From Escherichia phage vB_EcoBD_211: DNA of 52,807 nucleotides. Location: the sequence record PV893055.1. One strand, 5' to 3'. This document shows, in pieces, positions 2,273 to 4,807 of the stretch (its first letter is position 1; each line of letters opens with the position of its first letter). The translations under genes were made by a program, and so were the position numbers. A model generated the notes under the pieces. That model saw only the letters and a list, made by a program, of their open reading frames with translations, ran no database searches and was not told the origin of the DNA.

Positions 2273-4807
2273 TTACTTAAGTTTCTTGGCTTCGTCGTAT
2301 CCCCGTTCGGTTAAACAGTAGATATTTGCCGATTTCCCTCTTGTGGGTTTGTATATTTGGACTGCTAAATAGTCCTGGTCAATCATATCCTGCAACATAC
2401 CGTCAATAACCTTGTTATTTGCGGTTATGTTAAAGCCATAATTGGATTTGAACCAACTTAATGATTGCCGGATAGCATATATGCTCAGCCCGTTCATTTT
2501 CAGATGGTCTTCCCGTAAGCTTCTTACAACACCTTCGGGATAATGCTTGACTATGCCAGCCCATCCTCTTTTGGCGTAAAGGGCCAAAATGTCCCTGTAG
2601 ACTTTTAGGAAGCCGTCCACTACTTCGGCGTTGGTAGTTGGTGGTGCGACTATCCTGCTTGTGTTATTGACCCAGGCGGTTATACAACGAAGAACATACT
2701 TGTAAGCCCATTCAATGTTGTCCCTGGTCATTACAGGAGTATCCCAGTTGTCGAGTAATCCAATCAGTGCTGCTATATTGAATACATACTCACCCATTCG
2801 GCCCACAAAGGCTGATGCTACTTCGTTGTCCCTGTAATACTGGCGCATGTCATTAATGTTGCACTGGTACTCATACAGGAAGTCGTCATCGTCCGATTCG
2901 TCGTAAATAGGAATCGGGTCGTGCCTTAGTTTACCGTTAGGCGGGATAGCATTCACATAAGCGATTGCTTCCAGCTTCTCAATCAGCTCTTTGGAGAATT
3001 GAGTACGGCGAATCTGCTGGCGACGTCCTACCTTCTCAGGTTTGGCAAACTCCGCTCGTTCATAGTTCGGGATGAACAGGAAGCGGGGCAAAAAGCCACT
3101 TGAGAAGTCTTGCTTCCGGGTGTTATCAAGGATAAGCTCTTGAGTTGAGTCCCCCAGGATAGAGTAGCATGGTTCGCTTACTGTCTTGACATCATTGTCA
3201 GCATTAGCACGTTTGATACCTGTCAGTATACCGCCTAGTTTACGCTTGGTTGAAGCGTCCATCAGAGCTTTCTGAAAGTTGTCCGGGTTGTTAGGATTCA
3301 TGCGTAAGCCTGAACCTAAAGCCAGACCAAATTCAGGGTAGAACAACTGGACTGAATGGTATGACGGGTTTGACATCAGTTCAGCAAACGTCCTGGTTGC
3401 AAAAGTCTGCTCCCTTGGGATACGGTTAAGGCTGATAGGCGATGTATCAGGTAAACTTGCCTGTATTTGTGGGAACATTTCGGTATACAACGATTTACCG
3501 ATTGATGAACCACCCACAAGAATGATGTTGGTTACCAGGAAGTTAGCATGACCGCCTACTGGACAAACATACTTGCGACCAGCGCAGTTGCTCAGGATGT
3601 TAAGAGCTGTGCCGATTGCATAGTCGTTAACCCTGTTAGCCGGAGATATGTTATCCTGTATCTCAGCGATAAGCCGTTTAAACCCGGACGGGGCCGTCTT
3701 GACGAATACATCAGATGGCAGAATATCGTCGTTAACTTTGAACTCAACATTCTCAGCCAGGGAGACACCTGAATTCTTGGCTAACTCTTTGTTGATGTCA
3801 AGAGCAAACTTGGTCTTAACGAATAAGCCGTCACGTTGCATCTCTTTCAGCACAGTCTTACCAACACGACTGAACCACTGGTGATACTTATCAACAGACA
3901 AGTTGTGTCGGCTTGGTCTGCGACCTTCGTATGCTGCAGCTTTGCTGGCCATAAAGATGCGTTGTGTAACTTCGTAGTTACGGGTTACACGAAGCAGGTC
4001 TTTGAGTATGCGGCTTAACCGTTCGGAACCGTCGTTACTCACACCAACACCGTCTGGTGCATGCTCATTCAGGTAGTGCTCTAAAGCCCAGCGAGTATTG
4101 TCGGCTAACTGTTCGTACAGCTCTTTGTCGTACTCTTCGCCACGGTCTTCGTCTTGCTCAAACTCAACATCAATATCGGGTGCGCTTGACTCAAGAAAGA
4201 ACTTCTCAATTGCTGCATGCCATTCACGGGCTGAAACAGGATTAGCATTGAACTCGCTCAATACATTGCCTGTCATTACCAGGAACATCTCAGCCTTCTG
4301 GATTTTGATGTCCAGCTGGTCGTCTTTCTCTTTAGATGTTGCTGCAGTCCAGGGTAAAGGGATTGCGATGTGTTGCCCCTTGCCAGATATTGACGTCTCA
4401 GCATAAGCACCACGGGTCCCCTCAATTATCGCTTTGTGGGTTGCTTCAATGTCTGGATTATCATCATGGTTGTCCAGGTCAACAAAGTACCACTGGCGAG
4501 GAACAATCAAAGCCGGCACAAAGGTGATGTTACCCTGTACAGCTTTAATCTTCATTTCACGATTGCGAATACAACGTGTCAGGGCGTCGTCGAAAGTCAT
4601 CCACTCTTCAGGCACTGTTGTGCTGAAGGAACGGCCTGATGGCGCTCTTGCAGGTTTCTTAGGTTTGGATTGAACTTCGAGGGTCTCATCTTCGTACGTC
4701 AGCTCAAAGATGGCCCAGCGCTTCATATCTTTGAAGACTTGGGGAATCCCTTCTGGCTTAAAGTATTTCAGACCAAGAATATCACTCGGCTGACTCGTCA
4801 TTGTCAT
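2273..4807 (-). CDS. DNA primase-polymerase (AEP-type) fused to a P-loop SF3-like helicase
   Basis: N-terminal AEP-like motifs FVDLDNHD and SGKGQH; Walker A GGSSIGKS in the C-terminal half; 844 aa. Confidence 0.65.
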   Translation of the reverse strand: MTMTSQPSDILGLKYFKPEGIPQVFKDMKRWAIFELTYEDETLEVQSKPKKPARAPSGRSFSTTVPEEWMTFDDALTRCIRNREMKIKAVQGNITFVPALIVPRQWYFVDLDNHDDNPDIEATHKAIIEGTRGAYAETSISGKGQHIAIPLPWTAATSKEKDDQLDIKIQKAEMFLVMTGNVLSEFNANPVSAREWHAAIEKFFLESSAPDIDVEFEQDEDRGEEYDKELYEQLADNTRWALEHYLNEHAPDGVGVSNDGSERLSRILKDLLRVTRNYEVTQRIFMASKAAAYEGRRPSRHNLSVDKYHQWFSRVGKTVLKEMQRDGLFVKTKFALDINKELAKNSGVSLAENVEFKVNDDILPSDVFVKTAPSGFKRLIAEIQDNISPANRVNDYAIGTALNILSNCAGRKYVCPVGGHANFLVTNIILVGGSSIGKSLYTEMFPQIQASLPDTSPISLNRIPREQTFATRTFAELMSNPSYHSVQLFYPEFGLALGSGLRMNPNNPDNFQKALMDASTKRKLGGILTGIKRANADNDVKTVSEPCYSILGDSTQELILDNTRKQDFSSGFLPRFLFIPNYERAEFAKPEKVGRRQQIRRTQFSKELIEKLEAIAYVNAIPPNGKLRHDPIPIYDESDDDDFLYEYQCNINDMRQYYRDNEVASAFVGRMGEYVFNIAALIGLLDNWDTPVMTRDNIEWAYKYVLRCITAWVNNTSRIVAPPTTNAEVVDGFLKVYRDILALYAKRGWAGIVKHYPEGVVRSLREDHLKMNGLSIYAIRQSLSWFKSNYGFNITANNKVIDGMLQDMIDQDYLAVQIYKPTRGKSANIYCLTERGYDEAKKLK

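Follow-up and report, generated by a model that had tools for sequence, protein, structure and literature searches.

The minus strand of Escherichia phage vB_EcoBD_211 (sequence record PV893055.1) carries at positions 2273..4807 a gene for an 844-aa protein. All positions below refer to the window, the whole stretch of 52,807 nucleotides that was analyzed. We consider, with a probability of roughly 80%, that this gene encodes the single replicative primase-helicase of the phage, with four parts in one chain joined by flexible linkers: an NrS-1-like Prim/Pol domain of archaeo-eukaryotic primase (AEP) type (aa ~20-190), a helix bundle (~225-330), a DUF3987 AAA+ ATPase with a fold nearest to that of the minichromosome maintenance (MCM) helicases (~363-725), and a winged helix (~756-844). 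Shown by the analysis were the homology, the fold, the conserved motifs, the layout of the genes, and a conserved replication module. The gene and its function are already known, and in this respect the finding is an ordinary one; its sole unusual detail is motif III of the AEP domain.

Gene and Domain Structure

In the list of open reading frames (ORFs) of the window the gene starts with ATG. An earlier note on this DNA had reported the minus-strand ORF and quoted three motifs from its product, FVDLDNHD (aa 108-115, nt 4463-4486), SGKGQH (aa 141-146), and GGSSIGKS (aa 432-439, nt 3491-3514), and all of these are present exactly as described. Judging from the family alignment of 60 sequences, in which the relatives are mostly 17-28% identical to the 844-aa protein, the motifs are not chance matches. 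Residues D110, D112, S139, H146, and K438 are invariant in this alignment (60/60), and each of S141, G142, G144, T179, and G180 is kept by 56 or more of the 60 sequences. The phrog_3022 profile, "DNA primase", matches the protein over its full length with E=4.5e-186.

A 60-sequence alignment served to build a full-length AlphaFold2 model with a mean predicted local distance difference test (pLDDT) score of 86.3. It replaced an earlier model of the N-terminal 345 aa from a 6-sequence alignment (pLDDT 55, AEP core <50). Viral structure models of the same architecture carry the names NrS-1-HBD or DUF3987 protein. The parts of the gene, all on the minus strand, are the following:

2273..4807, minus strand: primase-helicase gene, 844 aa (phrog_3022 and annotations of relatives)
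4238..4750, minus strand: predicted AEP Prim/Pol catalytic core, aa 20-190
4463..4486, minus strand: AEP motif I FVDLDNHD, with D110 and D112 as putative metal ligands (60/60 invariant; NrS-1 alignment)
4370..4399, minus strand: AEP motif II and putative serine-rich nucleotide-binding loop ETSISGKGQH, with S139, S141, G142, G144, and H146 (conservation)
4265..4315, minus strand: non-canonical motif III strand and TG turn, LDIKIQKAEMFLVMTGN, aa 165-181 (column counts)
Acidic linker, aa 205-224, before the helix-bundle domain, and disordered linker, aa 331-362, after it
3818..4135, minus strand: helix-bundle domain resembling the helix-bundle domain (HBD) of NrS-1 polymerase, aa 225-330 (PF22763 in relatives, model)
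2633..3721, minus strand: DUF3987 / MCM-like AAA+ ATPase, aa 363-725, with helical collar, alpha/beta core, and helical lid
3491..3514, minus strand: Walker A GGSSIGKS with K438 (K438 60/60, G437 59/60)
3326..3352, minus strand: non-canonical Walker B strand VQLFYPEFG with E492 (E492 59/60, model strand E486-490)
3068..3097, minus strand: candidate arginine finger GFLPRFLFIP with R575 (G571 60/60, R575 59/60)
2792..2809, minus strand: helical-lid arginine R670, a candidate for sensor 2 (R670 59/60)
2276..2542, minus strand: predicted C-terminal winged-helix domain, aa 756-844

The Primase-Polymerase Domain

Direct searches of Pfam, NCBIfam, and the PDB sequences with the 844-aa protein assigned it neither to the AEPs nor to a helicase, the helix-bundle family PF22763 gave no direct Pfam match on the protein itself, and a profile of eight close homologues reached no PDB chain. 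The word-indexed homologue search returned one partial protein for the N-terminal query and the same seven close proteins for the full-length and alignment queries. By exhaustive HMMER search we detected 583 representatives at E<=1e-3, mostly 750-850 aa long and co-linear from about residue 20 to 710. The clade of the 844-aa protein is divergent, and its link to the AEPs comes through the profile of this wider family and not through direct sequence search.

The family profile was made from 69 of the 583 representatives, the 844-aa protein included. It matched the SaPI5 primase-helicase PriRep5 (7ola) with E=3.7e-63 and the N300 fragment of the NrS-1 primase-polymerase with E~1e-53, in both cases over profile positions 7-275, and its alignment to NrS-1 extends through the HBD up to residue 271. 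In a Pfam census of the 60 relatives, PF22763 (NrS1-1_pol-like_HBD) was found in 42. In the model aa ~225-330 are all-helical, with pLDDT mostly 74-95, and the flanking linkers score below 50. Relatives, profile, and model all place a domain of the PF22763 / PriCT-like kind after the catalytic core.

When the narrow clade was aligned with NrS-1 N300 by hhalign, the probability was 54% (E=1.3e-4) and the pairs DLD/DLD, SGKGQH/SGDGLH, and TG/TG fell in register. At motif I, D110 and D112 align with NrS-1 D78 and D80; at motif II, S139, S141 (59/60), and H146 align with S108, S110, and H115. NrS-1-like enzymes have an S-P-S loop in place of a zinc finger. In NrS-1 the residues S108 and S110 contact the gamma-phosphate of the deoxynucleoside triphosphate (dNTP), and mutations of S108 abolish activity (PMC8718748). 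These enzymes group with the pRN1-like "PrimPol proper" family (PMC5862659). Comparison of the structure model with known folds also gave a match to NrS-1 N300, that is, to the AEP catalytic fold. Assignment of the N-terminal part to the AEP prim-pol domains is therefore supported by the profile matches to NrS-1 and PriRep5, the HBD census, the fold match to NrS-1 N300, the alignment of motifs I and II, and the invariant residues. This agrees with the earlier note, which had proposed an N-terminal AEP primase-polymerase, and neither the profile nor the fold searches assigned the domain to a non-primase fold.

The Motif III Strand

The strand that follows motif II in the family has the pattern I-E-I-Y…R-f-x-T-x-T-G, whereas the 844-aa protein has L-D-I-K-I-Q…M-F-L-V-M-T-G. 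Three family residues are replaced in its clade: the Glu at position 168 (50/60; E139 in NrS-1) by Lys, the Tyr at 170 (52/60) by Gln, and the Arg at 174 (51/60) by Met. Residues D166, K168, and Q170 are invariant among the eight sequences of the clade, down to 43% identity. The nearest outgroups have LDLKIQ, IDIQIR, and INIQMK at this strand, and one relative (P0010) has Asn at 166 and Gln at 168. The catalytic importance of a residue such as NrS-1 E139 belongs to general knowledge of AEPs; literature text searches found no statement on the role of E139 itself. On a beta strand D166, two residues upstream of K168, would lie on the same face, so it could supply the third carboxylate. In the RepE/RepS AEPs the Asp of motif III is replaced by Gln, with an acidic residue upstream at variable spacing (PMC5862659).

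The replacements can also be taken to mean that the AEP domain is catalytically impaired and acts only in DNA binding or as a scaffold. The protein would then be an initiator and helicase, and priming would fall to the host DnaG or to recombination-dependent initiation by the Sak4/SSB/exonuclease set (SSB, single-stranded DNA-binding protein). The Lys in place of the Glu of 50/60 relatives, the accompanying loss of the conserved Arg and Tyr, the N166 and Q168 of P0010, and the full recombination set of the phage are all in line with this. However, D110, D112, S139, S141, G142, G144, H146, T179, and G180 show no variation within a clade whose members differ down to 43% identity, which is hard to account for without selection on the active site. 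In addition, the clade-invariant D166 on the same strand face could give the third carboxylate, with RepE/RepS as a precedent, and no second primase is annotated in the close relative birk. We regard an impaired AEP domain as unlikely. Since every other active-site residue is strictly conserved, the domain is probably active despite the change in motif III.

The ATPase Domain

The sole Pfam match on the C-terminal part was DUF3987 (PF13148) at aa 538-693, with 23.9 bits and E=2.9e-5 against a cut-off of 27 bits. The same family is on record for the homologues P0007 (77% identity) and P0008 (43% identity) and matches 38 of the 60 relatives at E<=1e-3. DUF3987 has been described as a distantly MCM-like group of helicase superfamily 6 (SF6), often fused to AEP or DnaG primases and bearing a winged helix-turn-helix (wHTH) domain at the C terminus (Kazlauskas et al. 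2016, NAR, PMC4889955). For MCM proper (PF00493) there was no match on the 844-aa protein or on the 60 relatives, and none of the PDB chains matched by the family profile at E<=1 was an MCM.

With the model as the query, Foldseek ranked NrS-1 N300 first and then MCM and ORC/Cdc6 chains, while chains of superfamily 3 (SF3) helicases were not returned. Of these folds, the one nearest to the ATPase core was that of MCM and not that of SF3. The Walker A lysine K438 (60/60), the Walker B glutamate E492 (59/60), and a candidate trans arginine, R575 (59/60), are all present. Just before the Walker B glutamate, at position 491, the family has G, S, or D, and the 844-aa protein has P. The domain also has a sensor-1 strand, SILG(D/E)ST. 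A G-x-L-P-R-F motif containing R575 stands just before beta5 (model strand E577-580 follows it), and we take this motif to be reminiscent of the MCM "SRFD" arginine finger. After beta5 the model has a helical lid (H606-720), in which R670 lies between helices H662-668 and H671-686. Together K438, E492, the sensor-1 strand, R575, and R670 fit an MCM-like arrangement. SF3 helicases have no C-terminal AAA+ lid and no sensor 2, whereas the model of the 844-aa protein has both the lid and the candidate sensor 2 arginine R670.

The earlier note had called this half an SF3-type helicase. An SF3 motor of the D5, E1, or P4-alpha type fused to a prim-pol, as in poxvirus D5, NrS-1 polymerase, and PriRep5, had to be weighed because the N-terminal domain is homologous to NrS-1 and PriRep5, whose helicase domains have been described as SF3-like (PMC7102993, PMC9371898). 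Moreover, SF3 and MCM are both AAA+ rings with a pre-sensor-1 hairpin and are not far apart. However, no SF3 family (D5_N, Pox_D5, Viral_helicase1, PPV_E1_C, and similar) matched the 844-aa protein at E<=1 or appeared among the 60 relatives. The family profile, despite its strong matches in the primase parts of PriRep5 and NrS-1, had none in their SF3-like helicase parts, and the predicted model places the ATPase core with MCM, RavA, and BchI and not with E1, LTag, Rep, or D5. On the fold ranking and the domain features we rejected the SF3 assignment, which now appears highly improbable.

The presence of ORC/Cdc6 chains in the Foldseek results (E~2e-4) raises another question, namely whether the AAA+ and winged-helix parts form an origin-binding initiator or loader of the ORC/Cdc6 kind and not a translocating helicase. 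Orc1/Cdc6 proteins likewise have their winged helix after the AAA+ domain, and an AT-rich gap with repeats adjoins the gene. Even so, we think this quite unlikely. Taking sequence and model together, the ATPase is best described as a predicted MCM-type motor that is a member of DUF3987 and not of MCM proper.

Comparison with Known Systems

The best sequence-profile match for the primase part is SaPI5 PriRep5 (7ola). PriRep5 is a self-contained primase, helicase, and initiator; it forms a hexamer, and its C-terminal domain is the origin-binding part and indispensable for ATPase activity (PMC9371898). Its ATPase is of the SF3 type, and the family profile does not match it beyond the primase part. 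NrS-1 polymerase likewise differs in its motor, which has been described as SF3-like with novel Head and Tail domains (PMC7102993), while the 844-aa protein would have an MCM-like/DUF3987 motor with a winged helix. NrS-1 also has the canonical E139 where the 844-aa protein has K168. NrS-1 polymerase has been described as the replicative polymerase of its phage (PMC8718748), whereas vB_EcoBD_211 has a family A polymerase (PolA) and a clamp.

By analogy, the best functional counterpart is BcMCM from a Bacillus cereus prophage (PMC2715239, PMC3273815). It combines an N-terminal AEP prim-pol with an MCM-type AAA+ helicase and also does without the N-terminal domain of canonical MCMs. It has been demonstrated to act as a primase (preferring dNTPs), a polymerase, and a helicase and to form hexamers induced by nucleotides (PMC3273815). 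BcMCM has 1028 aa and is recognized as MCM by BLAST, while the ATPase of the 844-aa protein is seen by sequence as DUF3987 only and as MCM only by fold. AgaPH belongs to the same Pfam ATPase family, DUF3987, and is associated with an AEP (AgaPP) and a helical domain of the PriCT/HBD type (PMC11724360). This PriCT-DUF3987 protein is a Walker A/B-dependent helicase driven by ATP or dATP, with 5'-3' polarity (PMC11724360). In the AgaPH/AgaPP system, however, primase and helicase are separate proteins of an integrated mobile element with a prokaryotic Argonaute (pAgo), whereas in the lytic phage they are fused.

Proposed Mechanism

By analogy with BcMCM, NrS-1 polymerase, SaPI5 PriRep5, and AgaPH, we infer the enzymatic activities, the hexamer, the polarity, and the hand-off of primers. 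The ATPase domains would assemble into a hexameric ring. ATP would be bound by the Walker A lysine K438 and hydrolyzed with the help of E492; R670 would serve as sensor 2, and R575 from the neighboring subunit would be the arginine finger. The ring would move along single-stranded DNA and open the fork. The tethered Prim/Pol would start primers de novo, using D110 and D112 as its metal site and S139, S141, and H146 in its nucleotide loop, with the helix bundle assisting. These primers would pass to the family A polymerase and its clamp, their probable users. The winged helix probably binds DNA, possibly an origin, and ATPase activity may depend on this part, as in PriRep5.

Several points weigh against the explanation of the gene as the replicative primase-helicase. 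No direct Pfam or PDB match ties the 844-aa protein or its eight-member clade to the AEPs, and the direct hhalign comparison with NrS-1 gives just the 54% probability (E=1.3e-4) mentioned above. With the family Glu, Arg, and Tyr of motif III replaced by K168, M174, and Q170, the primase chemistry could be altered or lost. In the motor half, the DUF3987 score falls below the curated cut-off (23.9 vs 27 bits) and Walker B lacks the usual Asp. In the model the segment that leads into the ATPase core (aa 363-412) consists of helices only, and the MCM-type N-terminal oligonucleotide-binding (OB) or zinc domain is absent, so the ring may be loaded, and the DNA handled, in another way than by MCM. 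Polarity is not predictable, as MCM moves 3'-5' and the sole tested DUF3987 helicase, AgaPH, moves 5'-3'. Finally, no experimental work on any member of the clade was found in the literature.

Relatives and the Replication Module

The window is that of a Rosemountvirus-like Salmonella phage. More than 50 Rosemountvirus phages (BP63, birk, PA13076, UPF_BP2, and others) have the gene with 95-97% identity in DNA and 95-99% (at most 99.3%) in protein, and GenBank labels it there "primase", "DNA primase", or "DNA primase/helicase". Given these annotated near-identical copies and the phrog_3022 match, the gene is already in the databases with essentially the function proposed here. Rosemountvirus gp23 (BP63, birk) is the same gene, with the same domain order, length, conserved residues, and genomic partners and no substantive difference.

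Two observations concern the database records themselves. GenBank PP583539.1, "Listeria phage 220426122051" (host Listeria monocytogenes), is 95.6% identical to the gene from end to end. As a Rosemountvirus is hardly to be expected in a Gram-positive host, this record is probably mislabelled or contaminated. Near-identical primase-helicases also occur in bacterial assemblies of Salmonella Rissen and Enterobacter hormaechei (P0001, P0004), on contigs of ~53 kb that are whole phage genomes.

As the earlier note had stated, a family A polymerase and a superfamily 2 (SF2) helicase are encoded elsewhere in the window. The probable partners of the primase-helicase are:

12276..13946, plus strand: SF2 (DEAD/ResIII) helicase (Pfam ResIII, Helicase_C, and DEAD; phrog_16, E=1.4e-98)
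17298-18293, plus strand: clamp-like processivity factor (phrog_947, E=1.9e-47)
18293-20260, plus strand: family A DNA polymerase with 3'-5' exonuclease domain (PF00476, E=4.7e-63)

The window also encodes a Sak4-like ATPase, a DUF669 SSB, a Cas4-like exonuclease, a MazG-like pyrophosphohydrolase, and thymidylate synthase. In the close relative birk the homologue of the 844-aa protein is the only annotated primase and a DEAD-box protein is the only other helicase, which argues that the 844-aa protein is the replicative primase-helicase and the SF2 enzyme an accessory one. We assign the SF2 helicase to the recombination set of Sak4, SSB, and Cas4-like exonuclease and do not count it as a second replicative helicase.

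The polymerase also bears on the role of the AEP domain. This domain might be supposed to be more than a primase, either the chief replicative polymerase of the phage, as in NrS-1, or a polymerase for repair or translesion synthesis. NrS-1 polymerase and BcMCM do extend primers with dNTPs (PMC8718748, PMC3273815), and AgaPP, the AEP partner of a DUF3987 helicase, has polymerase and repair-related activities (PMC11724360). However, vB_EcoBD_211 already has a full family A polymerase, proofreading exonuclease domain included, and a clamp-like factor, and a second replicative polymerase would be redundant. We judge such a role very unlikely; limited primer extension by the AEP domain is possible and compatible with a replicative primase-helicase.

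The earlier note had regarded the prim-pol together with two helicases as an uncommon combination, and this view should be abandoned. By tblastn, relatives were found in 168 records of phages (Pseudomonas, Xanthomonas, Vibrio, Stenotrophomonas, Rhodobacter, Pantoea, and others), and the name "replicative primase/helicase" is frequent among them. In the distant Pseudomonas siphovirus Yazdi-M (Septimatrevirus), one strand encodes PolA, a clamp, an SF2 helicase, a Cas4-domain exonuclease, an SSB, a RecA/Sak4-like ATPase, and MazG, and the opposite strand encodes the primase/helicase and a small gene upstream of it, so both the module and its inversion recur there. The module also occurs in Erwinia phage SOI901. 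Yazdi-M gp39 has the same AEP - HBD/PriCT - DUF3987 - wHTH layout (PMC4889955) and the same genomic partners, and proteins of the Septimatrevirus type are co-linear with the 844-aa protein at ~22% identity. As the module is common to unrelated phage groups, its presence here is to be expected.

Gene Layout and Neighboring Regions

The gene lies in a minus-strand block (1345..5114) with plus-strand genes on either side (72..1348, and from ~5184 on). Three genes make up the block, for proteins of 110 aa, 844 aa, and 143 aa, the last of them a nuclease. It is real, as is the small upstream gene that the earlier note had placed in it, and Erwinia phage SOI901 has retained the inverted arrangement of three genes; there the primase-helicase is 43% identical and a 110-aa gene has the same overlapping position. 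Around the primase-helicase gene the following features were found:

5145..5174, minus strand: promoter-like site TTTACT-18-TATAAT (consensus scan 10/12; consensus match only)
4782..5114, minus strand: 110-aa gene, function not assigned (phrog_28429, unknown function, E=4e-76)
2237..2268, minus strand: terminator-like hairpin, 13-bp stem, 6-nt loop, T-rich tail (scan; also found as an inverted repeat)
1777..2272, no strand: AT-rich intergenic gap of 496 nt, 25-31% GC (composition, repeats)
1859..1831, minus strand: promoter-like site of the nuclease gene, TTTACA-17-TACAAT with upstream TG (consensus scan)
1345..1776, minus strand: 143-aa PD-(D/E)XK nuclease gene (PF24608 PDDEXK_15, E=5.4e-18)

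The divergent intergenic region covers 5115-5183, or reaches ~5267 should an internal ATG be the start of the plus-strand gene. A 21-nt inverted repeat (5169-5213, 81% complementary, 3-nt spacer) lies there between the promoter-like sites 5174..5145 on the minus strand and 5208..5236 on the plus strand, and it may be an operator for both directions of transcription.

The 110-aa gene has an AGAGGAG ribosome-binding site (RBS) 6 nt before its ATG, and its product gave no Pfam or NCBIfam match. Its 3' end overlaps the start of the primase-helicase gene, whose ATG has an AAGG RBS, by 26 nt, and from this overlap the two genes are probably co-transcribed and translationally coupled. We also considered a small partner protein conserved across families and rejected it, as the small upstream genes of Yazdi-M and PAJD-1 have no similarity to the 110-aa ORF.

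The terminator-like hairpin begins 5 nt after the primase-helicase stop and is kept in phage birk. Together with the 496-nt gap and the nuclease's own promoter-like site, it suggests that the 110-aa gene and the primase-helicase gene likely form a two-gene operon and that the nuclease is transcribed apart. Co-transcription of the primase-helicase with the nuclease, which the earlier note had assumed, is accordingly doubtful. The Hjc-like nuclease of that note holds as to fold class, since its PF24608 score is 65.9 bits against a cut-off of 27 and places it in the PD-(D/E)XK class; the gene is not directly downstream, as the gap intervenes. The nuclease also matches phrog_244 (E=1.8e-23), and the PDB sequence search returned chance-level matches only, with no detectable solved homologue. 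Annotations conflict here: PHROG and the GenBank relatives give "RusA-like Holliday junction resolvase", while Pfam gives PDDEXK_15, a different fold from RusA.

In composition the gap (1777-2272) stands apart, with 25-31% GC vs ~46% elsewhere. Among its sequence features are an (ATA)n tract, a direct repeat of 29 nt (2137-2165 and 2220-2248), CCGGTT/AACCGG repeats, and several inverted repeats. Erwinia phage SOI901 has a 534-nt gap in the same position, and the two gaps have blocks such as CGCYGGCG, CGGATTGNTAAA, and TGTTACAATAT in common. The gap may be a regulatory region or a replication origin beside an initiator-like gene.

An extra ORF of ~500 bp lies between the nuclease gene and the gap in birk (9051-9557), SPLA11, SPLA2, zoltan, and LPSEYT, at a point corresponding to ~1777-1800 of the window. 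Its labels vary between "anti-repressor Ant" and "homing endonuclease". As it is present in some close relatives and missing from the window and about ten others, it looks like a mobile insertion at this site.

A wider idea would join these observations with motif III. The Rosemountvirus clade would have re-wired its AEP site, with the Glu changed to K168 and the carboxylate shifted to D166, and the two-gene operon and the conserved AT-rich gap with its repeats would make a self-contained origin-initiator-helicase-primase cassette, in which the winged helix recognizes the origin as in SaPI PriRep. We put this forward as tentative and rather doubtful.

Significance

The right label for the gene product is "AEP primase-polymerase / DUF3987 (MCM-like AAA+) helicase" and not SF3. 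Beyond correct annotation the finding has little significance. The K168/D166 arrangement of motif III and the polarity of DUF3987 helicases are modest, testable questions for prim-pol enzymologists.

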